This document shows positions 3,101 through 42,071 of a DNA stretch of 64,000 nucleotides, piece after piece. This stretch comes from a virus. Each line of letters begins with the position of its first letter. The stretch's first letter is position 1. The notes under the pieces are model-generated. The model saw nothing but the letters and a program-made list of their open reading frames with translations. It ran no database searches and had not been told where the DNA came from. A program made the translations under genes and the position numbers. The stretch is from positions 47,970-111,969 of IMG/VR virus record IMGVR_UViG_3300025000_000065, one strand, 5' to 3'.

Positions 3101-3120
3101 AATAAAATTATTGTTTTATT
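3101..3120. repeat. AATAAAA-N6-TTTTATT palindrome, copy 1
   Basis: AATAAAA ttattg TTTTATT, intergenic just after thyX. Confidence 0.7.
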
Positions 3121-3167: not shown

Positions 3168-4220
3168 ATGGCAAAAACGCATGAAAGTTTTGGTGATTTA
3201 GAACAAACCGATGGATCATTCGCCTTAAAAGGCGTGATTACTGGAGTGGCAAAACCAACATTTTACCAGGAAAAAAATGATAAAAATGGTAAACCATTTC
3301 GAATGATTAATTTCGGTGTTCAGGTTTCAAAGGATTGGGTTCATTATTTATCAATCAATGGAATGACTCAGGAAAAAGTATATTTCTATTCAAAAGACGA
3401 TAAGAAAACACTTAGCCAGGATTGGAAATCTCGTAATTCTTTCCGCAAAGAAGGATATCGACTAATTGGAATGAACTTGGGTCTTGAAAAAACCAAAGAT
3501 GAAAAAGGAAATGATGTAAACGATAAGAAAAATCTTGTTCCTTTTGATGCTTGTGGATATATTTATGAAAATTTAAAAGATGGAATGTCAGTGTTTGTTC
3601 GTGGAAAGCTAGAATATTCTAGTTTCAACAATAATAGCGGTGAACTGCAACGAAGTGTCAAACTTGTTCCTAACCAAATTTCTTTATGTAAAGACGTTGA
3701 TTTTGATGAAAAAGATTTTGATGTTCAATCAGATTTTACTCAAACATTTGTCTTTATGGATATGGAAATGGTCAAGGATGGCGAAGAAATTCTTGGGGCA
3801 AATGTTCATGGAAGCATTATAAATTACAATAGCATTGAACAAGCTGAATTCTTTATTCGAGATTCCGCATTAGGAAAGAATTTCAAAACATTAAAACCCT
3901 ATACTTTCATTAAAACATGGGGCAACCTAGAAACCGAACGCAATAAAGAAGAAGTTGCATCCGAAGATGTTTGGGGTTCAAGTAACACTATGGAATCTGT
4001 TCGTTCACCTTATAAGAAATTGTTTGTTATTACGGGTGCAGATCCAAAATCAATGAACCGTGAAGATTATAGTGAATTAAAAATGGATAAAGCATTGCAA
4101 GCAATGAAAAAATCACAATCAGAAAAAGAAGAATTTAAAACACAGAATACTTCTACTGCTGGAATTACCGAATGGGGAAATACTACACCCGTTGAAGATG
4201 AAGAAGAAACTGGTTGGTAA
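3168..4220 (+). CDS. Putative single-stranded DNA-binding protein (OB-fold type)
   Basis: VFVRGKLEYSSF OB-fold-like strand, acidic C-terminal tail (EDEEETGW) and position at the start of the replication module. Confidence 0.6.
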   Translation: MAKTHESFGDLEQTDGSFALKGVITGVAKPTFYQEKNDKNGKPFRMINFGVQVSKDWVHYLSINGMTQEKVYFYSKDDKKTLSQDWKSRNSFRKEGYRLIGMNLGLEKTKDEKGNDVNDKKNLVPFDACGYIYENLKDGMSVFVRGKLEYSSFNNNSGELQRSVKLVPNQISLCKDVDFDEKDFDVQSDFTQTFVFMDMEMVKDGEEILGANVHGSIINYNSIEQAEFFIRDSALGKNFKTLKPYTFIKTWGNLETERNKEEVASEDVWGSSNTMESVRSPYKKLFVITGADPKSMNREDYSELKMDKALQAMKKSQSEKEEFKTQNTSTAGITEWGNTTPVEDEEETGW

Positions 4221-4233
4221 TTATTATTAAAAA

Positions 4234-4261
4234 TAGGTGGAATTGAAATATATTCCACCTA
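4234..4261. terminator. Intergenic hairpin (terminator or stabiliser)
   Basis: 10-bp stem taggtggaat/attccaccta after the SSB-like gene. Confidence 0.55.
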
Positions 4262-4279
4262 AATAAAATAGGAGATTTT

Positions 4280-4495
4280 ATGAGAGAATTAAAAACCGTA
4301 AAAATGAGCGCAGTTGACGAACTCAGTAATGTAACAGTAAAACTTGATAGGAAAAATTTACCTGATGAGGAAACCGAAGATATTCAAATGATCACAGAAA
4401 ATTTCGTTGAACTTCTACGAAAATTACATTATAATCCTTCGGATATTCGTAATGCTGTACGTGATGTTTTAGAAAACTATGATTTTGAAGATTAA
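4280..4495 (+). CDS. Hypothetical protein
   Basis: 71-aa ORF with AGGAG SD. Confidence 0.7.
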   Translation: MRELKTVKMSAVDELSNVTVKLDRKNLPDEETEDIQMITENFVELLRKLHYNPSDIRNAVRDVLENYDFED

Positions 4496-4505
4496 GGAGT
4501 AATTA

Positions 4506-6599
4506 ATGAAATATGTTTTAAATGAGCCAAAGGTTGCGTTAGAAAGTTTTCGACATTATTTACGTGGAACTAAAAAGGTTGGTAAAGCACAACCACTATA
4601 TTCAAAAATTCAAACTCCTTATGGCGAAAAAACAATGGGAGAAATGAATGTTGGAGATGAAATTTTTACTATTGATGGAACTGTAACAAAAATCACTGAT
4701 GTTTTTCCCCAAGGTGTTAAAGATATTTATGAAGTTACCTTTTCTGATGGAAGCAAAACAAGATGTTCGGAAGATCATTTGTGGTCTGTTAGAACTAAAA
4801 AAATGAAGATCCTCGGAAAGGGATTTAATCGAATTATGACTTTAGGAGAAATTAAAAAAGATTATTTTTCTTTGGAGAAAGACGGCTATAGACATCCTAA
4901 ATTTGAAATTCCCATTGCAAGTGCCGTAGAATTTGAAAAAAGAGAAATTCCATTAGATCCCTATTTGCTAGGATTATTGTTGGGAGATGGATATATCTGT
5001 GGAAGAGTTGTTGGATTTTCCAATACAGAAGAAGATGTTTTAGAGAAAATTGAAAAAATATCTTTTGAAAAATATGGATGTGGTTTTGTTAAAAATTCAG
5101 AGCATAATTGCACGCATCATATAAAAAAACCAGATGGAGAATACAGAAATCCAATTCGAACAAAATTATCAGAATTGGGATTATTGGGATTAAAATCAAA
5201 AGATAAATTTATTCCCCAAGAATATTTATACAATGATTATTCAACAAGATTATCTATATTACAAGGATTAATGGATACAGATGGACACATTAGTCAAGAG
5301 GGACAAGTTAATTTTTCTTCAACATCTTTACAATTAATTGAAAATGTAAAGTGGTTAGTTCATTCCTTGGGAGGTCTTGCCACAATTCATGAAGATGCTA
5401 GAATTGGAAAAGAATCTTATTACTTAATTATTAGAGCAAATGGATTTGTACCCGTCACATCAGAAAAACATTCTCCAAAATTTGAAAAACATAATCCAAA
5501 TTTAACTAGATTTATTTCCAATATTGAATACATTGGTAAAGAAGAATGTCAATGTATTAAAGTTGAAGATGATTCAGAATTATATTTAACAGATGAGTTT
5601 ATTGTTACCCATAATAGCACGTTGTTCCGAGATTTAATTGTCGAATATTATGGAGATCCAAAATATGGATTAATGATTGCTCCAGGCAATGAAACAGGTT
5701 TTAAAGCCTTAGATAATCTGTATGCTATGGAAGCTCAAACATGGGAAGATTTCTGCGAAATTGTTAATGATTTAGTATTGAATAAGGCAGACAATGAATT
5801 TAAGATTATAGCAATTGATACCGTGGATGAACTAATTGCAATTGCAGAAGAAAAAGTATTGAAAATTCATTATCAACGAAAAGGCGAAAAGGCAACTTCT
5901 ATCAATGCTGCTTTAGGTGGATATGGAGCAGGAAAGAAAATGCTTCGTAAACTCATCAATGATAAAATCAAAGAAGTTGAAAATGCAGGTTATACCTGGT
6001 TTTTCGTTGGACATACGAAAGTTCGTGATATTAAAGAAAAGGGACAAGAGGAATCATATCAACAATTAACTTCCAATCTTGAGTTTGATTATGATGCATT
6101 ATTTACAGATAAAGCAGACATTATTGCCTCTTGTTACATAGAAAGAAACGTAAAAGATAATTCTTTAGAATCAACTACACGATACATTTATTTTCGCCCT
6201 AATGGTTTTGTTGATGCAGGAAGTCGTTTCAAAGATATGCCAGAGCGTGTTCCTATGACTGCACGTGATTACATTAGTGCTTTTGAACAAGGTGCAAAAG
6301 GAACTTATACAAAACCATTGACGAAAAAAGAATTGGATAAACGAAAGAAACAAGAAGAAACAGAACGTCAAGAACAAGCTCAAAAATTTACTGAAGCCAA
6401 AAAATCTAATTTTGAAGGATTAGAAACAGTTGAAGATTATCACAAAAAGATTCAGGAAATGAAAGAAGCATTGGACTCTGAGACTGCACGTGAAAAAGGT
6501 GAGCAATTAAAAGAAGCTGGATTGCCTCTAAGATTTAAAGAAATTGAAGATCTCGAACAACTAAAATTATTCTTAAAAATCGTTTCTTCAGACGATTAA
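4506..6599 (+). CDS. AAA-family (AAA_24/Sak4-like) ATPase interrupted by an intein
   Basis: Walker A GTKKVGK|ST is split by the intein; Walker B IIAIDTVD; FFVGHTK; AGSRF. Confidence 0.8.
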   Translation: MKYVLNEPKVALESFRHYLRGTKKVGKAQPLYSKIQTPYGEKTMGEMNVGDEIFTIDGTVTKITDVFPQGVKDIYEVTFSDGSKTRCSEDHLWSVRTKKMKILGKGFNRIMTLGEIKKDYFSLEKDGYRHPKFEIPIASAVEFEKREIPLDPYLLGLLLGDGYICGRVVGFSNTEEDVLEKIEKISFEKYGCGFVKNSEHNCTHHIKKPDGEYRNPIRTKLSELGLLGLKSKDKFIPQEYLYNDYSTRLSILQGLMDTDGHISQEGQVNFSSTSLQLIENVKWLVHSLGGLATIHEDARIGKESYYLIIRANGFVPVTSEKHSPKFEKHNPNLTRFISNIEYIGKEECQCIKVEDDSELYLTDEFIVTHNSTLFRDLIVEYYGDPKYGLMIAPGNETGFKALDNLYAMEAQTWEDFCEIVNDLVLNKADNEFKIIAIDTVDELIAIAEEKVLKIHYQRKGEKATSINAALGGYGAGKKMLRKLINDKIKEVENAGYTWFFVGHTKVRDIKEKGQEESYQQLTSNLEFDYDALFTDKADIIASCYIERNVKDNSLESTTRYIYFRPNGFVDAGSRFKDMPERVPMTARDYISAFEQGAKGTYTKPLTKKELDKRKKQEETERQEQAQKFTEAKKSNFEGLETVEDYHKKIQEMKEALDSETAREKGEQLKEAGLPLRFKEIEDLEQLKLFLKIVSSDD
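4587..5615 (+). mobile_element. Class 3 (Ala1) intein with LAGLIDADG endonuclease, 343 aa
   Basis: Starts AQPL; block B CSEDHLW; YLLGLLLGDG and LQGLMDTDG; block F ECQCIKV; ends YLTDEFIVTHN|S. Confidence 0.9.
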
Positions 6600-19767: not shown

Positions 19768-21681
19768 TTGGCAGAACTTAATGAAAAGGCAAAGAAAATT
19801 TTCGCATTAAAATATTCGAAAAATAAAACAAAAATTTGGAGTGAAAAATGTAGAACGATTGCAAAACAAATAGCTGAAGCAGGAAAAAATTATGGATTAA
19901 CAGATGAACAAATATTAGAAGTCGAAGAAGAATATTATAAAGTCATATATGATCTACTGATTCTTCCTGGTGGAAGAATAATTGCAAATGCTGGAACAGG
20001 AATAAAAAATCTTGCAAACTGTTTTGTTTTAGCTATTCAAGATTCTAGAAGTTCCATATATGAAGCGTTAAAAGATGCTGCAGAAGTTTTTGCTATGGGT
20101 GGAGGGGTAGGATATTCTTTTTCCAATATTCGAGAAAAAGGTGCTTTAATTAATTCTACTGGCGGTGAAGCTTCTGGCGCTTTGAGTTTTATGACATTGT
20201 TTGATCAAACAGGAGAAGTAATTCAACAAGCATCTAGGAGAGGAGCTCAGTTAGGATCTTTAATTGTTTCACATCCCGATATTGAAAATTTTATTGAATT
20301 TAAATCTAATTTAGATGTGAGAAATTCAAGATTAATGGAAGAGTATGATCGTAATTTAAAATCTTTTGATGGGAGATTAAAAAATACAAAATATGAAAAA
20401 GTTTTAGAAAAAACTCTTTTGGATGATCAATTAACTCATTTCAATATTTCAGTTCTACTCACAGATGATTTTATGAATGCAGTAAAAGAAAATCGTAATT
20501 GGGATTTGATTTCTCCTGCAACAGGAAAAGTTATAAAAACAGTAAATGCAAAAGATTTATTATTACGAATGGCAACTCAAGCTTGGGAATCGGGAGATCC
20601 AGGGGAATTATTTTATGATCGAATAAATGAAGATAATATGGTGAAATTTTTAGAATTAATTTATGCAACCAACCCTTGTGGTGAAGTCCCCTTATTGTCT
20701 AACGAAAGTTGTATTCTGGCTTCAATTGTTCTTTTATATATTTTTGATCAAAAAACAAAACAAATTAATTGGGATTTATTAAAGACACTTATAAAAACAT
20801 TGATTAGATTTTTAGATGATGTTACAGAAGTAACAGAAGCTCCATTAGATAAAATAAACATTGTTACAAAATCATTGAGACGCTTAGGCGGTGGAGTAAT
20901 GGGTTTTGCAGATTTATTAGTAGAAATGAACATTCCATATGATTCAGATGAAGCAGTTGAATTATCGGAATATCTTTCATGGTTTATTAATTTCCATGCT
21001 TGGGAAGAATCATTTAAATTAGCTAAAGAACGTGGTGCTTTTGCTTACTATGATTCGGAAAAAGTCGATCTCCACGTAGTTGAAAAAGTTTTATATGATA
21101 ACCCTTATGAAAAATCATATATTAATCGAGAAGAATTAAGACAAATTGGCGTTAGAAACGTTGCCTGCATCAGTCTTGCACCTACGGGGTCTATTGCTAT
21201 TATTGGTGGCGTAAATAGCGCAATTGAGCCATTTTTTGCCCTTGCCTATAAACGCAACATCACAGAGGGGGTGGGAAATATTGCTAAAGATTCTATCTTT
21301 GAAGTGAATCCTGCATTAGAAAGAAAATTAAAAGAATTTGGATATGATAAAGAGAAAATAAATAATATATTGGAATACGCTTCTTCGACAGGAACATTAA
21401 CCGGATGCAAATTAGTGTCTGAGGAAGTACAAAAATTATTCAAAACATCTAATGAGATTCCTTGGAAAAGGCATGTAGATATTCAAGCTGCATGGCAAAA
21501 ATATACAAGTAATGCTATATCTAAAACCATTAATATTCCTGAAGAAGCTACTGTTCAAGATATTTTTGATATTTATCTCTATATGTGGGAAAAAAGATTA
21601 AAAGGCGGAACTATTTATAGAAACAATAGCAAATCATTTCAAATCTTAGAGAAACCAGAAAATATACAAAAGGAAAAATAA
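19768..21681 (+). CDS. nrdJ: Class II (adenosylcobalamin-dependent) ribonucleotide reductase
   Basis: PGGR, NCFV, RRGAQ, TNPCGEVPL..ESC, APTGS, ISKTIN and KGGTIYR; no beta-subunit gene nearby. Confidence 0.85.
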   Translation: MAELNEKAKKIFALKYSKNKTKIWSEKCRTIAKQIAEAGKNYGLTDEQILEVEEEYYKVIYDLLILPGGRIIANAGTGIKNLANCFVLAIQDSRSSIYEALKDAAEVFAMGGGVGYSFSNIREKGALINSTGGEASGALSFMTLFDQTGEVIQQASRRGAQLGSLIVSHPDIENFIEFKSNLDVRNSRLMEEYDRNLKSFDGRLKNTKYEKVLEKTLLDDQLTHFNISVLLTDDFMNAVKENRNWDLISPATGKVIKTVNAKDLLLRMATQAWESGDPGELFYDRINEDNMVKFLELIYATNPCGEVPLLSNESCILASIVLLYIFDQKTKQINWDLLKTLIKTLIRFLDDVTEVTEAPLDKINIVTKSLRRLGGGVMGFADLLVEMNIPYDSDEAVELSEYLSWFINFHAWEESFKLAKERGAFAYYDSEKVDLHVVEKVLYDNPYEKSYINREELRQIGVRNVACISLAPTGSIAIIGGVNSAIEPFFALAYKRNITEGVGNIAKDSIFEVNPALERKLKEFGYDKEKINNILEYASSTGTLTGCKLVSEEVQKLFKTSNEIPWKRHVDIQAAWQKYTSNAISKTINIPEEATVQDIFDIYLYMWEKRLKGGTIYRNNSKSFQILEKPENIQKEK

Positions 21682-25269: not shown

Positions 25270-26265
25270 TTATTCAATTCTTTTTAAATATTGCTTTCCA
25301 GCATGTTTTTCTGCAACCCATCCAATATTCTTATCAAAGATCCAATTTTCATAAGGAGCAAAAGAATTATCAAATTCTACTATGTTTCCTTTTAATAATT
25401 TTTTCCCCGTAAATGTATTTGCAGAAACTCTTGGTTGTGTCCTAATATTTAATTCATCTGAAACAACCTCAAATTTTATTGTTTTACCGTCATCAATAGG
25501 ATCAGTTGGATCTACAGGAGGGGGTTCAACAGGAGGTTTTGGAACAGTTGGGACTTTAAATTGAGCACAAAGTTGTTCAAAAGATCCTTTATAGTAATTC
25601 ATATCTAACCCAAGACTTTCAGCACCAAAAGCTAGTCCATCCCCTTTATCACTCCACTGCCAAAATGTAAACGTATCCCAAGGTGTAAGTCTTTTCACAT
25701 TATCTTCCATATAAGATTGATTGGTATAAGAAGCAATCCATAATGGATAGTTTTTCCATACGTCCGCATCTGTACCATGCTCAGCCCAAAAAAAAGCACC
25801 AGTATATATAATTGGTTTTTTACCAGAAAGTCTTTCCATCTCTACTACATAGTTCCATAAAATATCATATGCTTTTGGAGGTGGTGGATTCCAATACTCA
25901 AAGTCAATAACGGGTGGCAATTCACCAGGATCATTTTGAATAATCGACCATGCGTATTGCGCCTGTTTTTTTGGATCAGCAATCCAATCGAGAAAATGAT
26001 AAGCTCCTCTTAATAGCCCTGCCTGTTTTGAAGATTTCCAGTTATACAAAATATCTTCATCAGTCCATAAAGCTTGAGAAGATTTAATAAATACAAATTT
26101 AGCCCCCATTGCAACTGACTTTGTAAAGTCCATTTGTTGAGCGGTGGAATTATTGTCCTGCCATTTTGAAACATCAATGCCAAGTGTATAAGCCATAGAT
26201 TCCTCCATTGTTTTCCAATCATTCATAATCAACGGTAAAAATACTGTTGTTATTTCAGTTTCCAT
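25270..26265 (-). CDS. Endolysin: GH25 muramidase, Pro-rich linker and SH3-like domain
   Basis: GIDVSKWQ, FVFIKSSQ, RGAYHF, PPVIDFE, WIASY, FWQWS and DMN; PKPPVEPPPVDP linker; LNIRTQP (SH3b-like). A second in-frame start lies at 26196. Confidence 0.9.
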   Translation of the reverse strand: METEITTVFLPLIMNDWKTMEESMAYTLGIDVSKWQDNNSTAQQMDFTKSVAMGAKFVFIKSSQALWTDEDILYNWKSSKQAGLLRGAYHFLDWIADPKKQAQYAWSIIQNDPGELPPVIDFEYWNPPPPKAYDILWNYVVEMERLSGKKPIIYTGAFFWAEHGTDADVWKNYPLWIASYTNQSYMEDNVKRLTPWDTFTFWQWSDKGDGLAFGAESLGLDMNYYKGSFEQLCAQFKVPTVPKPPVEPPPVDPTDPIDDGKTIKFEVVSDELNIRTQPRVSANTFTGKKLLKGNIVEFDNSFAPYENWIFDKNIGWVAEKHAGKQYLKRIE

Positions 26266-26286: not shown

Positions 26287-26333
26287 CCCCCACATATGGG
26301 GTATATCACATCACGATACACCATATATGGGGG
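26287..26333. promoter_or_regulatory. Tandem NrdR-box-like operators upstream of the endolysin
   Basis: cccccacatatggggt (26287-26302) and acaccatatatggggg (26318-26333), 31-bp period; compare the NrdR consensus acaCwAtATaTwGtgt. Confidence 0.65.
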
Positions 26334-26343
26334 TTAAAAACCA

Positions 26344-26363
26344 AATAAAATCAACATTTTATT
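26344..26363. repeat. AATAAAA-N6-TTTTATT palindrome, copy 3
   Basis: AATAAAA tcaaca TTTTATT. Confidence 0.7.
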
Positions 26364-31738: not shown

Positions 31739-34432
31739 TTAACCATAAATTGATGCGACATCTCTCACGCTTCCTTGTCTAACAAGAGTAGAATTGATTT
31801 CTTTTATAACATCTCTAGCAATGTCTTTTATTTTTGGAATTGTTTTTTCAATTACATCACCTTGAACCGTAATTAAACTTTCAATATTTAAACCTCCAGA
31901 ACCTTGAGCCTTATTAATAATGTTAGCAACACGAGGAATCATCTTTAAGGTTTTCAATATATCATTGTTATTCATTACCTCTTCACCAACAAGAAGTTTA
32001 GAAAGAATTTCACCTGGTAATGTTCTAACTCCACCTACTGCACCAGAAGATAAACCACTATGATGAGTAGGAAGTGTTTCTGTAGATACAACTGGGGAAA
32101 CTCCACCATATAATGCATCTGCTAAATTTCCGTATTTTAATAATGCATCATAAGCTTCATTCCATGCTTCGACAACATCTGTTACAATTCCAGATCCATA
32201 TTCAGAATTCCAATCTATTAATGATTGATATAAATCAGGAGCTTGTTCCCCAATTCTATCTAATGCATCTTGAGCAATTTGACCAGTTTTATCTAAGTAT
32301 TCATCAATAGCAGAAACAGCCTCTTCAATTATTGCAATTTGAGAATCGATGTTTTCTTTATATAGCTCATATTCTTGATCCAGTGCTTCTTCCTGCAAAT
32401 CATAAGATCTATCTCTTTGAGTTTGTTCTAAGTCTTTTTGAGCATCTGCTAATTCTTCAGCGAGTTCTAACTGTCTTGCTTTAGACTCAGCGGAAGTATC
32501 AAGTGCCAAAATTGCCATTTCAGATTGAATCTGAGCAATAGTTTTAGTTTTATCCTCTAGTTCTTCTTGATATTCTACGGATTCTTGTTCTGCTCTTAAG
32601 ATTTCTTTTTTGGCATCTATAATTTCTTCATAAGCGTCAAGTTGTGCTTCTAATCCATCTATTTGATCTTTTAAAGCATCTTTTCTTGCGTTTTGCTCCG
32701 CTTTAATTAAACTAATGACTAGATTGTGAAGATCTTTAAGTGTTTTTATTTCTTCTTTTGCAGCAGCAGAAGATCCACCACCGCCACCGCCTCCAGCACC
32801 ACCACCTGAATATCCAGGAAAAGCAGATCGAGTTGGAACATTTGTAGGAGGTGGATTGAACGGCAAAGAAACGCCATTTAGAATATCATCACCCATTGGT
32901 TCTGTACTTTGATTAGAAATAACATTTCCACTTGTAGTAACAACAAAATTTAAATAATAATCTCCACTTATCGCATTTGCAGCATTTCCAATATTTAAAA
33001 TGTTACCAATTGCTATTGCAGCAGCTTCATAAGATCCATTTGCTAAATCAATCATGGCTTGATCCATTGAACCCAATACTCTTACAGTTTCCGATCCCAT
33101 GAATCCCCAAGCTGTCATCATATCAGCAGCCATAGTATAGGCTACATTTTTAGCTTCATTGCCTAAAGTAGATAATTGTATTCTTTGAATAAATGTACTA
33201 ACGATAGATGCCTGAAGAGATTTCTCATAAGCATCAGCGGTTTTTAAAATATCCTGTTCAACATTATATAATTCATATTGTAGATCACCCAATTGAGTTA
33301 ATTGCTCATCTGATAATGTTGGTTGTTCTGAAAGTAATCGTATTTCTTCTCTTAATTCTGCCGCTTGAATTCCTGCTTTTTCTTGTTTTTCGTGATAAGA
33401 ATCAAATGCTTTTCCAAATGAATCATCGAGTATATATTGCAGATTATCAAATGCTTGAGATAATTCTTCTGTGCTATCAAAGATTTGACCATGCGCACGT
33501 CTCCAAGCTGTTACCCAAGTATCTAATTCTGCTTTCGTAGCATTAAATAAACCGAGTTCAGCATCAGTAAGAGTTCCAAAATCTTCAGCGGTTTTTACTA
33601 TAACCTTTCCTCCGCTGCTTACAACTCTTATTAACTCACCGTTTTCACCGATGGTATATCCAGCAATTTCCGCTGCTCTTTCTACTGCTTCAATATAATC
33701 ATTATAATTACCTGTTGTATCTTTTAGTGTGGAAATTACTTCTTTCAATCCTTGATCAAGTATTTTTTGTTTATTTACAAAAAGATCAGCTATAATTCCT
33801 GCTCTATTATGAGCTTCATTAACGGAATCCACCATTTTTTTGTATTCACCCATTACTTGTTCGGTGGTCTTAATTTCTTCACCTAAATTTTTAAAAGCAT
33901 TAGACCAAGCATTAGTTGTATTTTCTAATCCTAAATCTTGCTGTTTCTTAACTGTTTGTTGATATGTTATAATTACAGCAGTTAAAGCAACAATTGCGAT
34001 TTGAAAAATTGAAACCCAAGATATAGTTGTTTTTAATAAAAGTTGCAAACTAACTAATGAAAAAGAAAATCCTTGTATAGCCGTAGTTGCACCCATAATT
34101 TTAATAATAAAATTTGCCATTGCTTGGGCACTTAAAACTCCAACCAAACCAATAAGAGATTCTAAAATAGGAATTAGTCCACCCATAGAATCAATTGCTT
34201 CAACAGAAGAAATTCCTAAGTCTAAAAAGAATTTAATGACATCATCATCGATTGCTTTTTGCCATAGGTTTTCCATTGCTGCCTTTAATGTATTTGCTTT
34301 TCCCTCTATGGAATCCATGTAAATTTTATATCGTTCTGTAGCCAATCCAACAGAATGAAGTTGTTGTTCTTGAGCTTCTAGTACCTGGTTGTAGTTTTCC
34401 ATCAAAATTAAAAAATTTTCGCGTTGCCGAAC
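31739..34432 (-). CDS. Tape measure protein, exon 2
   Basis: In-frame VRQRENFLILMENY continues exon 1 (...NAIAG); long helical, coiled-coil and hydrophobic segments. Confidence 0.85.
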   Translation of the reverse strand, partial: VRQRENFLILMENYNQVLEAQEQQLHSVGLATERYKIYMDSIEGKANTLKAAMENLWQKAIDDDVIKFFLDLGISSVEAIDSMGGLIPILESLIGLVGVLSAQAMANFIIKIMGATTAIQGFSFSLVSLQLLLKTTISWVSIFQIAIVALTAVIITYQQTVKKQQDLGLENTTNAWSNAFKNLGEEIKTTEQVMGEYKKMVDSVNEAHNRAGIIADLFVNKQKILDQGLKEVISTLKDTTGNYNDYIEAVERAAEIAGYTIGENGELIRVVSSGGKVIVKTAEDFGTLTDAELGLFNATKAELDTWVTAWRRAHGQIFDSTEELSQAFDNLQYILDDSFGKAFDSYHEKQEKAGIQAAELREEIRLLSEQPTLSDEQLTQLGDLQYELYNVEQDILKTADAYEKSLQASIVSTFIQRIQLSTLGNEAKNVAYTMAADMMTAWGFMGSETVRVLGSMDQAMIDLANGSYEAAAIAIGNILNIGNAANAISGDYYLNFVVTTSGNVISNQSTEPMGDDILNGVSLPFNPPPTNVPTRSAFPGYSGGGAGGGGGGGSSAAAKEEIKTLKDLHNLVISLIKAEQNARKDALKDQIDGLEAQLDAYEEIIDAKKEILRAEQESVEYQEELEDKTKTIAQIQSEMAILALDTSAESKARQLELAEELADAQKDLEQTQRDRSYDLQEEALDQEYELYKENIDSQIAIIEEAVSAIDEYLDKTGQIAQDALDRIGEQAPDLYQSLIDWNSEYGSGIVTDVVEAWNEAYDALLKYGNLADALYGGVSPVVSTETLPTHHSGLSSGAVGGVRTLPGEILSKLLVGEEVMNNNDILKTLKMIPRVANIINKAQGSGGLNIESLITVQGDVIEKTIPKIKDIARDVIKEINSTLVRQGSVRDVASIYG

Positions 34433-35941
34433 TTTTCTGTTGCTTTCACACCGCGAAGCATGTTACTGACCATTTTACAATGGCGATTAAGTATTTCTAC
34501 TTAATTCTGCAATTTCTTTTTGTTATAGTTGCAGAGCAGACCATATCTTTTTCTTGTTTTATACAAGAAAGATGACGCGGGAATTTATGTCACCACAAAC
34601 ACCCAATTGGTCGTTACGGATTCTCAAAAATTATAAATAATGACTAAAAATTGTGTGTAGTTTAGTCAAATCTTTTCTAAAAATTTCTATTAATTTAATA
34701 TTATTATCTTTACAAATATTTCTTTTTTCTTTCATTCTCTCAAAATAAAAAATTTTTTCTGGCATTCCAAAAAATTCTACAAATATATTTTTTTCAATTA
34801 CCCAATCAACTCGTTTTAATCCACATCTATCATCTTCACAATACTTATTATACATTTCCTCTTTTTTATAATTTATATCATTATCTATTAAAAAATTTGT
34901 TATTGTCAATTCAGACTTGGAAAAACATAAATCTTTATTTGTAGAATAATATGTATTAGATTCTCCAAATAAAGAAGAATTTGAATCTAAATTAGCTAAC
35001 CCACATGCATTTCGATATCCATCAAATCGTCTTTCAAATGTTTTTACAGATGGCAATCCATAAAGAACAAGTTCGCTACCATAAGGAGTTCTTCCTAAAT
35101 ATTCTCCTAATTCTTTTAGTTGTTCTATCATTTGATCTGCATCATACCATTTAACACTTTTTTCTTTAGTTTTATGAAATCCTAATTTAAGTGCCATAGT
35201 TCTTATGCTTTCCGGTTTTCTATTAAGAAAATATTTTTCACTCAAGTATTTATTAGTATAATGAGGATAAACGGTTTTTAATAATTTTATATCTTCGTTT
35301 GTCCAAGTTTTATTTACTTTCAATCTTAAATTATTTATTTTTGCATAAACACCAGATAAAGTTCGATTTAATTTTTTAGCAATTTCTTCATAAGATAATG
35401 TATCATAATTTTTTATTAAAAAATCAATTTCATCAGGTGAATAATCTCTGTTTTTTTCAACAATTATATTCAACTCAGAAGATTTATGACGAATTGAATC
35501 AATATTATTATTTTCTAAATTTTTCATTAATAACTCATAATTTCCACTAGGATATAATTCTTTTAATATTTTAATCCTATCATCCGTCCACTGATATCTT
35601 CCAATTCCCCAAGAAGAAATTAAATTTAATATTGTTGAAGAACATCTATTTACTTTTTTACATATTTCGTTTAATGGAATCTTATTATAATTATCTTTAA
35701 TATAATCTAATTCATTAGGCGTCAATGGTTTCTTTTTCATACTGTTTAATTATCCTTTTAAAAATATTCGCTACACATCAAATATTTTTTAATAATTTAT
35801 TTTTTTTTATAATTTTTGAGTCTTTCCTCGGAATTGTCTGCTTCCAGAGTTTTTCCGATATGGTCATCTTCTGAGATTTTTATTCTAATTATAGAAAATG
35901 CAATCTCTATATGTTACCATATATTCTGGCATTCTATTTTT
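34433..35941 (-). mobile_element. Group I intron (1509 nt) in the tape-measure gene
   Basis: P1 CUGGU/GCCAG with U-G at the 5' splice site; P3 GAUGAC/GUCAUC; P7 (A)cGACCA/UGGUC(U) within CCGUAACGACCA and AAGAUAUGGUCU; 15-bp stem flanking the ORF. Removing it restores the reading frame. Confidence 0.88.
34631..35740 (-). CDS. Intron-encoded putative homing endonuclease
   Basis: N-terminal HTH/Myb-like repeats (WT..I..LK..YP), LGRTP...LPS..TF.RRF repeat, and C-terminal SKSE...RVDW...VEFFG PD-(D/E)xK-like domain. Confidence 0.75.
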   Translation of the reverse strand: MKKKPLTPNELDYIKDNYNKIPLNEICKKVNRCSSTILNLISSWGIGRYQWTDDRIKILKELYPSGNYELLMKNLENNNIDSIRHKSSELNIIVEKNRDYSPDEIDFLIKNYDTLSYEEIAKKLNRTLSGVYAKINNLRLKVNKTWTNEDIKLLKTVYPHYTNKYLSEKYFLNRKPESIRTMALKLGFHKTKEKSVKWYDADQMIEQLKELGEYLGRTPYGSELVLYGLPSVKTFERRFDGYRNACGLANLDSNSSLFGESNTYYSTNKDLCFSKSELTITNFLIDNDINYKKEEMYNKYCEDDRCGLKRVDWVIEKNIFVEFFGMPEKIFYFERMKEKRNICKDNNIKLIEIFRKDLTKLHTIFSHYL

Positions 35942-37126
35942 ACCAGCAATAGCATTTGCAACCGCACTTTGCTCTATTTCATTCATCGTAGACCATTTTT
36001 CAGCAATTTCATCCATTACATCACCCATAGGTCTAAATGAAGTAGCGGTATCTCTTAATCTGATATTGACTAAACCCAATGCTCTTTCAACATCGTTAAT
36101 ATTTGTTTTATCATCTTCAAACATTTTTCCAAGTTTAATGTTTTCTAAACGAGCGAACATCGTCTTCATACTTTGACCTATCGACTCAGCGGAGCGGCGT
36201 GAAACGCTCGAAATCGTAGCAATGTAACTTGTCAACTCATCAAAACTAACTCCTGCTTGTTGAGCAGAAGCAGCAGAATATTGTAGTGCTGTGGCAATTT
36301 CATTAGCCGAGGTTGCCATCCGATTATCCAAATCGATTATTTTATCAACAACCAAACTAGCATCCTCAGCCTCTAACTTAAATCCATTCAAAGTAGCTGT
36401 TAGTTTTTCAGTTGAATCTGCGGATTCCATGTTTCCTAACTTACTCAACATCAAAGTTGACTTCATTAATTCAGAGGTTTCTTCAATTGTCTTTCCTTGC
36501 CTGAACCATTCGAGGCTTCCCTGTGCCACCTGAATTGTTGTAGCACCCATTTCTTTTGCAAGTTTATTATATTCAACCGCTAATCTGTCAACTTCATCGG
36601 CAGTCATTCCCGTAACAATTTGAACATTTGTTAACTCTTTGTTCAAATCTTTAATATATTGTATTCCTTCTTCTATTTTTCGAAGACTTCCATAAATAGC
36701 TTGTGTTGCAAGAAACCATATTGCAACTTTTTTAATAGCAACTTCAAGCATGGATGTAAATCCATAACCATCTTTAGTCGTATTTTTCATAGAAGCACCG
36801 ACTTTAGTAACAGAAGTTCTTAAATCATCAAAACTTCCCCTTACGTCTTGAATAGAAGCACCACCCCTTTGAGAAAAACTAGTAATGTTATCTTGAAGAA
36901 CCTTTAACGATGCTTGAACGTCTGCGTTATTAAAAATATCTGGAGATTTAAATTGCATTCTTGCAATTTGATTATTCCACTGTTTAACATAAGAATCAAT
37001 ATCTTTCTGCCCCATATTGATACTTGTTGTTATTTTAATATTTTTAGTTTTTCTATCTAATTTATCTTGAAGACCTGTAACATCAGGTTCAATGCCAACT
37101 ATAATATTATAACCACCATTAGCCAT
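35942..37126 (-). CDS. Tape measure protein, exon 1 (spliced product about 1292 aa)
   Basis: TP901-type TMP core (ELTNVQIVTG, EWFRQG, SAESIGQSMKTMFARL); GGAGG SD before ATG 37126. Confidence 0.88.
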
Positions 37127-37164
37127 TAATAACCCTCCTTTCAACCTCTAGAAAAGAGGCAATT

Positions 37165-38160
37165 TCATAAACCAAACATTTTATCTATAATTTCGTCTGT
37201 ATGATCTTTTGAATAATCTAAAGTAGTTTTTGGATCGGAATGATGAAGATAGACTTGAACTTGTTCCAAACTAAATTTTTTAGGAACTCCATCTTTATCT
37301 AAAATTCTTTTATCTTCTCCTTGTAATAAACATTCACATCTCGAATGTCGATAACTATGGGGAAAAATATTCATTTGCTTTCCTTCAATTTCACTCAAAA
37401 TTTCTCTTATTTTTAAAACCCAATCATAAATCATTTCATAAGAGGCTTCTCTTTTTTTATCACCACTACCAACAATCCATAAAGATTCAACATTATCTTC
37501 TCCACGTTTATCCAACCAAAGTCTTATTAATTCCTTGGTATCGTCTAGGTAAATTAATGGAAATATCTTTCCTCTTTTTCCTATGACTGCGTTAGTCTTA
37601 TTACTATTTAAAAGATTGTATTTTTTTATTTGAGCAATTTCATTTCTTCTTGCTCCACTATCAAACATCATCATATGGAGTAAAGCAAGTTGAATTTCCC
37701 CCATTTCCAATAACTTTTCTTTTACCCTTATGATTTGATCAAAAGTCATAAAAAAAGAATCTTCATCAGTTCTAACAGGCTCTTTCGGTAGTCCTTTTAT
37801 TTTTTGAGCCTGATTAATATCATATTCATATTCATCAGAATCTTCAATATAAGAAAGCATACTTCTACAACAACTCATTACTCTATTTACTCTAGCATTT
37901 GACATTTTTAAATCATCACTTAACCAAATGCTAAGTTTTCTAAAATCTCTTTTTCCTAATTCTAATAAATTTCTATTTCCGCAAAATCTTTTTACAAAAA
38001 TATTAATTATTCTGAGATCATTTTCATATTGTTTTATTGTACTTGCTTTCATTTTTCGTTGCTGATATTCTTCTAAGAAGTCCTGAACAATATCTTTGTT
38101 TTCTATATTTATGTGGGAATATTCTTCATCTGTGTATATTCTATTATATACTCTGCTCAC
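37165..38160 (-). CDS. Tyrosine recombinase (integrase/Xer family)
   Basis: SGARRNE, GKRGK, PHSYRH and LHHSD.KTT.DY; the R-K-HxxR-H-Y catalytic set appears intact. Confidence 0.9.
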   Translation of the reverse strand: MSRVYNRIYTDEEYSHINIENKDIVQDFLEEYQQRKMKASTIKQYENDLRIINIFVKRFCGNRNLLELGKRDFRKLSIWLSDDLKMSNARVNRVMSCCRSMLSYIEDSDEYEYDINQAQKIKGLPKEPVRTDEDSFFMTFDQIIRVKEKLLEMGEIQLALLHMMMFDSGARRNEIAQIKKYNLLNSNKTNAVIGKRGKIFPLIYLDDTKELIRLWLDKRGEDNVESLWIVGSGDKKREASYEMIYDWVLKIREILSEIEGKQMNIFPHSYRHSRCECLLQGEDKRILDKDGVPKKFSLEQVQVYLHHSDPKTTLDYSKDHTDEIIDKMFGL

Positions 38161-38169
38161 ATTCCCTCC

Positions 38170-38625
38170 TTATAAAATTCCTTGCTGTTTGAAATAAGTT
38201 AATCCAACAGCTAAAGAATCAGATTCATCATCATTATTAATTACTACATCTTTCCATTGTTTTAAAACAGATTTTTTAACTTGTTCTTTATCTGCTTTAC
38301 CACTTCCTGTAACGGTTTTTTTTACTGTAGTTGCAGGAATATAAATTTGTTCAGACTTCCATAATAAACAATTTATTACACCAACACATCGATAGATCTG
38401 TTGGGTAACTGTCCCAAACTTGGAAAACCCCTTTTCGATAATGACTAAATCAAATTCATATCGTTTTTTTAAATTAATAAAGAAATCTGCAATTTTTTTT
38501 AATCTAATTTGTGTTAAATCTTTTGGTGAAGTGGGAACACTAAAAACTTCAATTACATTTCCCTTTTCATCAAAAATAGATCCACCAGTATTCACCAATG
38601 AAATATCTAATGCTAAAATATACAT
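38170..38625 (-). CDS. ruvC: RuvC-like Holliday junction resolvase
   Basis: ILALDISLVNTG, IIEK, VKKTVTGSGKADKEQV and DESDSLAV. Confidence 0.9.
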   Translation of the reverse strand: MYILALDISLVNTGGSIFDEKGNVIEVFSVPTSPKDLTQIRLKKIADFFINLKKRYEFDLVIIEKGFSKFGTVTQQIYRCVGVINCLLWKSEQIYIPATTVKKTVTGSGKADKEQVKKSVLKQWKDVVINNDDESDSLAVGLTYFKQQGIL

Positions 38626-38633
38626 TTTTTATA

Positions 38634-38711
38634 CTCCCATATATGCCGATATACATCACACATACCCCCATATATAGGGGTATAAAATTTCTTGACCCCC
38701 ATATGTGGGGG
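38634..38711. promoter_or_regulatory. Triple NrdR-box-like operators upstream of ruvC and the recombinase
   Basis: ctcccatatatgccga (38634), cccccatatatagggg (38665) and cccccatatgtggggg (38696); exact 31-bp period; the first box overlaps the ruvC SD. Confidence 0.65.
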
Positions 38712-38721
38712 TATAAAATCC

Positions 38722-38741
38722 AATAAAATGTGAATTTCATT
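38722..38741. repeat. AATAAAA-N6-TTTCATT palindrome variant
   Basis: AATAAAA tgtgaa TTTCATT, at the same offset from the last NrdR-like box as at 26344. Confidence 0.6.
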
Positions 38742-38746
38742 ATTTC

Positions 38747-38790
38747 TAAAAAAATAGAACACGCTCGGAGATCCGAAACGTGTTCTATAT
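38747..38790 (-). terminator. Intrinsic terminator after the holin
   Basis: Stem atagaacacg/cgtgttctat followed by a U-tract on the - strand. Confidence 0.7.
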
Positions 38791-38806: not shown

Positions 38807-39115
38807 TTATGCGCTATTGTTTTTATCAACAATATGAAAAGCTTTAGTTCCTAAAACATAAGTAATTACAGTTACGACAACCATAAAATACGGAGAAGCC
38901 TGTGCAATAAGCTCCTGAGGAACAAAAGTTGTAATTGCTAAAGCCCCAATACCTAATAGAGAAGGAATGACAATCATTAAAAATTGTTTTACTTTAGCTG
39001 TTTGTGCTTGAAACCAATCCCATCTTTCAGCTAAAAATGAAACTAATAAAGCCCCACCGCCACCAGTCAACCAAATTAAAAACCCACCTAAATCTTGAAA
39101 TTTTTCTTCAGCCAT
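38807..39115 (-). CDS. Putative holin
   Basis: 102 aa, three hydrophobic segments, charged C-terminus, late region. Confidence 0.6.
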   Translation of the reverse strand: MAEEKFQDLGGFLIWLTGGGGALLVSFLAERWDWFQAQTAKVKQFLMIVIPSLLGIGALAITTFVPQELIAQASPYFMVVVTVITYVLGTKAFHIVDKNNSA

Positions 39116-40950: not shown

Positions 40951-41045
40951 GTAATAACTCCTCCTATAAAATTTTTAGGGGAGATTAAACCCCCATATAT
41001 TGAGAGAGATTTATTTCTCTCTCAATATACATGTTATTATCAAAA

Positions 41046-42071
41046 TTATGCCGTGCCAACAGCACTGAATGTATCCGTCAAAGATCCGCTTGTAGCATCG
41101 TAATAAGTTGCAGTAAACAATGCAGCGTCTCCAGCCCCAACAGTTGCACAAGCAGAAACAATTCCGGTTGCTGCACCAATGTTGAACGTAGTACATCCAC
41201 TTGTTCTAACCCAAGATGCCGATGTAGTAATACTAGCATTTGCATAAGTTCCACCACGAATACCTAAAAGATTAGCCTGTTTAGATTTTGGTAAATCTGC
41301 TGTACTGAAAGTTAAAACCGTAGGGGTAATAGCAATACTAGAAACAGCAATAGTAGAAGTAGAAACAGGAATCCACGCTACACGATAATAGTAGTTTGGA
41401 TCGGTTGTAGTAGAAGTAACTTCTAAGGCTTTACCATCAAGGGTTTCAGTAGAAACACCATTAGCGGTCATAGCCAAACTATAATTACCGGAAATTTGAA
41501 ATCGTGGAACATGAATTTGAAGTCTTTCAACAAGACCAGTGTTATCTTTGACTTCCGCAATCAAAATTAAATCTACGATATCTGGAGCTTCAGTTGTAGA
41601 ACCAACAACATAATCAACAGTATCAGTATAAGTATAAATTGCAGTAACTTTTTGAGTTCCACCACCAGAAACTGTAATAGTCGTACTAACCGGAGTTACA
41701 GTTTGAATTGTTCCATTTGGCAGTACCACACTAACATTTCCAAGAGGAGTTTCACTTAAAGTCCCATCATCAGCAGCTAAAACTATATCTTCTTGTTTCA
41801 CACAAGTCAATGCACCATTCTCTACTGATCCTCCTGCATTTAAAGCCAAAATAGACTTTGAAAAAATAGCAGATTCAATTGAAAGTTCAACCATACGATC
41901 ATGATAGAAACTATAAAGTAATGGATTTCCAATTCCTCCACGAACATCTGTATTCTGCATAGTAATATTGAAAGCAGAATTAATGTTTGCTTTACCTATA
42001 GCTAAGGTTTCAAGAGTAGTTGGATTTCTCAATATTGCATCTGCAACACTAACTAAGAAATTATTTGCCAT
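41046..42071 (-). CDS. Major tail (tube) protein with an Ig-like C-terminus
   Basis: DVRGGIGNPL, codon bias of a highly expressed gene, position after the neck genes. Confidence 0.75.
   Translation of the reverse strand: MANNFLVSVADAILRNPTTLETLAIGKANINSAFNITMQNTDVRGGIGNPLLYSFYHDRMVELSIESAIFSKSILALNAGGSVENGALTCVKQEDIVLAADDGTLSETPLGNVSVVLPNGTIQTVTPVSTTITVSGGGTQKVTAIYTYTDTVDYVVGSTTEAPDIVDLILIAEVKDNTGLVERLQIHVPRFQISGNYSLAMTANGVSTETLDGKALEVTSTTTDPNYYYRVAWIPVSTSTIAVSSIAITPTVLTFSTADLPKSKQANLLGIRGGTYANASITTSASWVRTSGCTTFNIGAATGIVSACATVGAGDAALFTATYYDATSGSLTDTFSAVGTA

Follow-up and report, generated by a model that had tools for sequence, protein, structure and literature searches.

The window is a stretch of 64,000 nucleotides, corresponding to bases 47970-111969 of a 111,969-bp IMG/VR virus record (IMGVR_UViG_3300025000_000065; GC content, 28%). 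Judged by its sequence, this 112-kb phage is SPbeta-like; its terminase shares 37-40% identity with the SPbeta terminase (YonF) and with terminases from Thomasclavelia phages. The best guess for its host, going by the relatives of the phage, is a low-GC member of the Bacillota. Homologs of its endolysin and its GMP reductase are metagenomic sequences that carry no useful organism names. The late region lies on the minus strand, from about 64 kb down to 25.2 kb, and its genes encode in order the terminase, the portal, structural proteins, a 102-aa membrane protein, a RuvC-family resolvase, a tyrosine recombinase, the tape measure, tail proteins, and a GH25 endolysin. The array of interest lies between the gene for the 102-aa protein and ruvC, and a sister composite precedes the endolysin gene. 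The features are as follows.

38807-39115, minus strand: 102-aa protein with three hydrophobic segments, upstream of the terminator
38747-38788, minus strand: intrinsic terminator that closes the preceding late sub-operon, a long GC-rich hairpin with 7 U
38722-38741: 7-6-7 palindrome of the AATAAAA-N6-TTTTATT type, one mismatch
38712-38721, minus strand: T-rich spacer of 10 nt from the palindrome to the first box
38696-38711: distal NrdR-type box (C5-ATATGT-G5), 6 of 6 critical positions, 13.5 bits
38681-38695: distal-middle linker, 15 bp
38665-38680: middle NrdR-type box, 6 of 6 critical positions, 14.9 bits
38650-38664: middle-proximal linker, 15 bp
38634-38649: proximal degenerate box on the ruvC Shine-Dalgarno sequence, 5 of 6 critical positions, 3.3 bits
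38170-38625, minus strand: RuvC-family resolvase, the first gene past the array (Pfam RuvC, E = 1.1e-9)
37165-38160, minus strand: tail-module tyrosine recombinase (Pfam Phage_integrase, E = 1.1e-8)
35885-37144, minus strand: first part of the tape-measure gene, which opens the tail block downstream of the array (Pfam PhageMin_Tail, E = 2.5e-33)
31739-34405, minus strand: remainder of the tape-measure gene (matches tape-measure PHROGs)
26287-26363: sister composite before the endolysin gene (boxes at 26287-26302 and 26318-26333; palindrome at 26344-26363)
25270-26265, minus strand: GH25 endolysin (Pfam Glyco_hydro_25, E = 7.5e-32)
19768-21681: RNR large subunit

On the gene strand, the order from the 102-aa gene to ruvC is terminator, 7-6-7 palindrome, T-rich spacer, three boxes, and the ruvC ATG at 38625. 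The terminator has a minimum free energy of -20.3 kcal/mol (z = -4.5). The boxes themselves were rejected as an intrinsic terminator, since no run of U follows them on the minus strand and the terminator is a separate hairpin. The 102-aa protein has no Pfam or PHROG match. In Lactobacillus phage Lenus and Enterococcus phage 9183, a holin gene sits just ahead of the homologous recombinase, and the 102-aa protein is a possible holin, a role we infer; the endolysin gene is 12 kb further down. The likely start of the endolysin is the ATG at 26265, which has a GGAG 7 nt upstream. A mechanical ORF call placed the start at an ATG inside a box, which was set aside in favor of the likelier ATG with the Shine-Dalgarno sequence. 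The DNA of the tail-module recombinase gene resembles recombinases of Enterococcus, Staphylococcus, and Lactobacillus phages. An ORF of 369 aa (34631-35740) that contains an HNH homing-endonuclease repeat splits the tape-measure gene (31739-37144), whose occurrence in two parts around this ORF suggests an intron or a homing insertion.

A sequence-only reading of the window had described a triple array of NrdR-like boxes with central hexamers at 38639, 38670, and 38701, a 31-bp period, and a proximal box lying on the ruvC Shine-Dalgarno sequence. The coordinates were confirmed, and the GGGAG lies inside the proximal box, 8 nt upstream of the ATG. Of the three boxes, the distal and the middle one are canonical, the middle being the second-best single box in the 112-kb genome. 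The proximal box fails at one critical position and scores so low that the array counts as a canonical pair with a degenerate third box rather than a triple of equals. Its fault is at G13, which is a C on the plus strand, and 8 of its 16 positions are self-complementary; it is a decayed box that doubles as a ribosome-binding site. The two 31-bp units of the array are identical at 22 of their first 24 bases and at none of their last 7. Because they differ at all of these last positions, the third box is not a fresh slippage copy, and it keeps its helical phase despite the divergent unit ends.

The composite layout recurs before the endolysin gene, as had been claimed. In both arrays the distance to the palindrome start is 26 bp from where the distal box starts and 21 bp from that box's hexamer, which is the shared offset (26323/26344 in the endolysin array) that the earlier reading had noticed. 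The palindrome at 26344 is perfect and the one at 38722 has one mismatch. Within the window the two composites form direct repeats, 12.4 kb from each other. The spacing of 10 nt from palindrome to first box is preserved in five separate composites, namely both window arrays, L147 (G002), L014, and L021. The AATAAAA-N6-TTTTATT palindrome itself is a common element, with 41 copies in the genome at ≤1 mismatch (examples in the window are at 3101, 6611, 22420, 26344, 38722, 42897, 53670, 59527, and 61072). Most copies lie just before the ribosome-binding site of plus-strand early genes; before some late genes the 6-bp center of the palindrome holds the Shine-Dalgarno sequence (e.g., 42897 and 59527).

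The rules for an NrdR box have been determined by mutagenesis and comprise C4, A6, A8, T9, T11, and G13 (PMC13584703), six positions that are conserved in about 60,000 bacterial NrdR motifs. A mutation of G13 abolished binding in E. coli, and changes at positions 3 and 14 had no effect. The sequence between C4 and G13 must be at least about 63% AT (PMC13584703). NrdR needs two boxes, and its tetramer binds only if it carries both ATP and dATP. Linkers of 14-17 bp and of any sequence are tolerated, 15-16 bp being usual, and NrdR proteins bind boxes of other species. All six critical positions are present in four boxes: the distal, the middle, and the two of the endolysin array. The AT fraction from C4 to G13 is 0.62-0.88, with two boxes at the lower limit of 5/8, and the linker is 15 bp in all pairs of the window.

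A weight matrix was built from only 10 experimentally bound boxes of E. coli and S. coelicolor (PMC13584703). With this matrix the four good phage boxes score 13.5-15.0 bits, compared with 8.9-16.9 bits for the bound boxes themselves when each is left out in turn, and of all 16-mers in the genome they hold ranks 1, 2, 3, and 6. The endolysin pair scores 29.4 bits and the distal-middle pair before ruvC 28.4 bits, against a maximum of 15.3 +/- 2.3 bits (highest, 20.6) in simulated genomes. Full 12-position pairs with a linker of 15-16 bp occur twice in the 112-kb genome and in none of 60 Markov simulations. The six-position rule alone finds 45 single 16-mers in the genome where 38 are expected, so single boxes are uninformative. 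In the RNR gene, a weak tandem at its 3' end (21576/21608) was rejected because its 15.2 bits lie inside the null range, and no box pair was found upstream of the RNR gene by pair scan or weight matrix in the 112-kb genome. The strong boxes are self-complementary at 14 of 16 positions and come closer to being perfect palindromes than the natural bound operators with which they were compared. The genes downstream are ruvC, the recombinase, and the tape measure in one case and the GH25 endolysin in the other; neither array stands at the promoter of an RNR gene or of nrdR.

Bacteria carry the same box variant. When 185,579 species genomes were searched for the C4/G3-flanked pair, 110 matches came up, against about one expected by chance. 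Among the 49 ORFs beside non-cyanobacterial pairs, 8 encode NrdR, 10 encode RNR large subunits, and 1 encodes an RNR small subunit. One site in Anaerolineae is almost identical to the phage boxes and lies 21 nt before nrdR. The variant thus flanks bacterial nrdR and RNR genes and is a working type of NrdR operator in nature. No low-GC Bacillota are among the 80 bacterial pair loci listed. The assignment of the phage boxes to the NrdR type is supported by every sequence criterion examined, namely the critical positions, linker length, AT content, free linker sequence, and bacterial occurrence of the variant. The distal-middle and endolysin pairs are predicted to be good NrdR sites and the middle-proximal pair a weak one.

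Related phages show which parts of the array are kept. Relatives whose RuvC is 84-85% identical retain the terminator, the palindrome, and the middle and proximal boxes. Exactly one 31-bp unit, that of the distal box, is missing in L006/L022 and in L007/L013; the terminator is kept in L006 and L007, and the palindrome is perfect in L022. On sequence comparison two boxes are the common state, and the third, as one 31-bp unit, was either acquired by this phage or lost from the relatives. Since the proximal box departs from the rule at a critical position, relatives that have only the middle and proximal boxes would have a weak site; this pair scores 18.1 bits, inside the null range. The endolysin array was compared with five orthologues, whose endolysins have identities as low as 43-56%. 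Identity is 94% for the palindrome and 91-93% for the boxes, and 50% each for the linker and the downstream leader. All 12 critical positions are invariant in these orthologues, and so are 7-8 of the 10 non-critical box positions; the G/C flanks at positions 1-3 and 14-16 are conserved. The word catcac, which had been noted in a linker of both arrays, is present in both within the window and is not kept in the endolysin-array orthologues.

In a complete relative of 137.7 kb, the composite lies between a recombinase homologue and the tape-measure gene. A second composite of this relative (L014:7015-7140; L149, G002 106157-106196), with a 14-bp linker, lies in the replication module, between a DNA methylase gene and a gene for a 315-aa protein, and is flipped relative to the latter. 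The linker is 14 bp in the composites of L014, L021, and L147 (G002). Viral contigs with a GC content of 40-58% also contain pairs of the same box type, in one case ahead of scaffold and capsid genes, a spread that favors a widespread host factor. A classical pair is also present in the uncultured faecal phage MT835469. No strict pair was found in seven cultured relatives whose genomes were scanned (Enterococcus phage 9183, Staphylococcus phage CF1, Lactobacillus phage Lenus, SPbeta, Thomasclavelia phages TR-TP1 and TR-TP2, and Clostridioides ES-S-0107-01), and no Pfam match was found among the neighbors of like pairs at eight loci in seven other viral contigs. In one 53-kb contig of 56-58% GC (IMGVR_UViG_3300028837_001657; L150, L152), two NrdR-type pairs stand 101 bp apart in two places and adjoin small ORFs without a Pfam match.

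The boxes could be recognized by another dimeric DNA-binding protein, of phage or host, that prefers C5-ATATAT-G5, in which case the likeness to NrdR would be convergent. There is no nrd gene nearby, and many ORFs of the phage have no known function. Positions 3 and 14 are dispensable for NrdR, yet the C5/G5 flanks are conserved, so something besides NrdR may constrain them; because the binding data do not explain these flanks, this possibility and that of a role in the RNA leader, considered below, retain some probability. Such a protein is nevertheless unlikely, as four boxes match all six positions of the 60,000 NrdR motifs and have in addition a spacing of 14-15 bp, the same variant marks bacterial nrdR and RNR genes, and it is common to viral contigs of very different GC content.

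The sequence-only reading had paired the resolution of Holliday junctions with lysis as the co-regulated functions. The same composite does precede the endolysin gene; the unit is better taken as a tail-plus-lysis block. The position of the composite between the recombinase homologue and the tape-measure gene in the 137.7-kb relative indicates that ruvC as such is not what is controlled. No minus-strand terminator was found in the window from ruvC down to the one that follows the endolysin gene, so the array probably controls entry to the entire tail-plus-lysis stretch, of which the endolysin has a second gate. A search with a sigma-70-like pattern placed no promoter at the array; matches near it are at chance (2, against 3.1 expected), as they are over 17.6 kb (94, against 98 expected). 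The plus-strand TTGACC-16-TAAAAT at 38692-38719, which had been read as a promoter pointing antisense to the holin, is present as sequence; it is of a kind expected by chance and belongs to the 31-bp unit missing from relatives.

The phage does not bring its own NrdR: no gene with an NrdR, Zn_ribbon_NrdR, ATP-cone, or sigma-70 region 2 domain was found in the genome. Its genes of nucleotide metabolism are those for the RNR large subunit and the GMP reductase. A 946-aa homologue of YonO is encoded outside the window on the minus strand (G000 3474-6314, which is L142:3474-6314), with 34% identity to a Bacillus phage protein and 27.5% to SPBc2 yonO. The YonO of SPbeta is a single-chain RNA polymerase that reads the SPbeta late genes. 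The 7-6-7 palindrome was considered as a YonO promoter element and rejected, since it is absent from the yonN-yonK region of SPbeta, where a YonO start was mapped.

The array is probably an operator for the NrdR of the host, placed at the entry to the ruvC-recombinase-tail block, with a second operator in front of the endolysin gene. We assume that the infected cell contains NrdR, which one study of this repressor reports in 77% of bacterial genomes. An NrdR tetramer loaded with ATP and dATP would bind the distal and middle boxes and bend the DNA. Bound NrdR would then block either the initiation or the passage of RNA polymerase, whether the host enzyme or a phage enzyme of the YonO type. Such repression would fall early in infection or in a resting lysogen. 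The site would empty as replication drains dATP or as phage genomes come to outnumber the repressor, and the tail and lysis genes would be read. The 7-6-7 palindrome, 10 nt from the first box, would be part of the same transferable cassette. The earlier proposal that repression lasts until replication ends runs against the behavior of NrdR, which binds DNA with dATP and ATP, that is, when dATP accumulates at low DNA synthesis (PMC9110341); since binding goes with high dATP, release is to be expected while replication is draining it. Taken as a whole, the interpretation of the sequence-only reading is partly supported. The strong predicted NrdR sites before the tail block and the endolysin gene suggest a tie between tail building and lysis on one side and the state of replication or of the dNTP pool on the other. 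A wider reading, which we hold tentatively and at slightly less than even confidence, is that one lineage among the SPbeta-like phages uses host NrdR as a gauge of replication or dNTPs or as a counter of genome copies, by way of a transferable cassette placed ahead of gene blocks (those for tail and lysis among them) that a YonO-type phage polymerase probably transcribes.

NrdR could be bound at these sites mainly as by a sponge, hundreds of replicated genomes, with two or three strong sites in each, titrating it off the nrd promoters of the host and thereby raising RNR and dNTPs. The high self-complementarity of the strong boxes, beyond that of bound natural operators, is in keeping with this, as is the phage's investment in nucleotide metabolism, and a genome carries just two arrays. 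For a sponge there is no need to stand immediately ahead of a gene start, behind a terminator, and at a constant distance from the palindrome, and relatives conserve this placement; titration as the main role is quite unlikely. The sponge and operator roles are not mutually exclusive.

A distinctly unlikely alternative is that the palindromes act in the mRNA leader through pairing within or between boxes, hiding the Shine-Dalgarno sequence or stabilizing the 5' end and so controlling the translation or decay of ruvC and endolysin transcripts. For ruvC the leader has a predicted fold of -41 kcal/mol (z = -4.4), for the endolysin gene one of -37 kcal/mol (z = -4.8), with predicted box-to-box stems that extend to the Shine-Dalgarno region, but any pair of like palindromes folds in this way. 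The changes among relatives are one-sided, with positions 5/12 and 7/10 varying alone and the positions needed by NrdR never varying, and an RNA stem needs no constant linker of 14-15 nt.

That the composites are crossover sites for the adjacent tail-module recombinase is very improbable: its gene does adjoin the composite in the window and in the 137.7-kb relative, and the two composites of the window are direct repeats, but a crossover that excised the intervening DNA would remove the tape measure and essential tail genes, relative L013 keeps the same 12-13 kb arrangement from one composite to the other, the complete genomes of phages 9183, CF1, and Lenus encode homologous recombinases and carry no pairs, pairs also stand before capsid genes and in a replication module, and a 5-6-5 box with strict 31-bp phasing is unlike a core site of the Xer or Cre type. 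For any recombinase site at this locus, the 7-6-7 palindrome with its 6-bp center is a better candidate than the boxes.

Operation by host NrdR, the preferred reading, can be set against known systems. LexA boxes on prophage genes are sites for a host regulator. The Spo0A boxes on phi29 and Nf are host-regulator sites on phages as well (PMC2731898). The phage described here would likewise borrow a host sensor in its own control regions and so read the state of the cell; the sensor, unlike LexA and Spo0A, would be the dATP/ATP-sensing NrdR, described so far as specific to RNR genes. Bacterial NrdR operators are known at E. coli nrdAB, nrdHIEF, and nrdDG and at S. coelicolor nrdRJ and nrdAB (PMC13584703, PMC9110341, PMC12051234). 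The phage sites resemble them in having two 16-bp boxes with the six positions, a 15-bp linker of free sequence, and an AT-rich center, and the first 11 bases of E. coli nrdAB box 1 are those of the middle phage box on the gene strand. They differ in standing before ruvC, recombinase, and tail genes and before the endolysin gene instead of RNR genes or nrdR, in their C5/G5 flanks, in the 7-6-7 palindrome 10 nt away, and perhaps in a polymerase of the YonO type. Triple arrays occur at T. maritima nrdJ (14-bp linkers) and S. pneumoniae nrdHEF (boxes 0, 1, and 2), likewise in helical phase and likewise with one box that can be weak or non-functional; the phage linkers, by comparison, are 15 bp, and the third box is an exact 31-bp unit that varies between close relatives.

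In T4, late transcription is coupled to replication through the sliding clamp gp45 with gp55 and gp33 (PMC7892883). The phage proposed here would resemble T4 in that its late genes come on only once replication is under way. The T4 link is an activator loaded at forks, whereas the link here would be relief from a host repressor by dATP drain or by titration. A full-text literature search turned up no description of NrdR boxes at late genes of phages. If the reading is correct, phages read DNA synthesis or genome copy number before committing to assembly and lysis. This would be a new logic of late gene timing and would extend the NrdR regulon beyond RNR genes, and antibacterials that target NrdR could alter phage development.

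One class of the 110 bacterial matches consists of palindrome pairs of another kind. In mostly cyanobacterial contigs (L024, L031-L034, L048, L050-L052, L085, L087, L090-L092, L095, and L097), C5-AAATTT/AAATCT-G5 palindromes form pairs about 31 bp apart, many per genome (about 10 in Argonema antarcticum). These AAATTT-centered pairs are not beside nrd genes and look like a separate repeat family.

Two minor features of the window lie apart from the arrays. An orphan box-like 16-mer with one C5 arm (40990, 10.8 bits; within 40976-41029) overlaps a 14-bp hairpin between a structural gene (41046-42071) and the next gene, and no partner box was found at 30-33 bp from it. The AAA_24 protein encoded at 4506-6599 on the plus strand contains a LAGLIDADG domain at residues 248-310, which is possibly an intein or a fused homing endonuclease.
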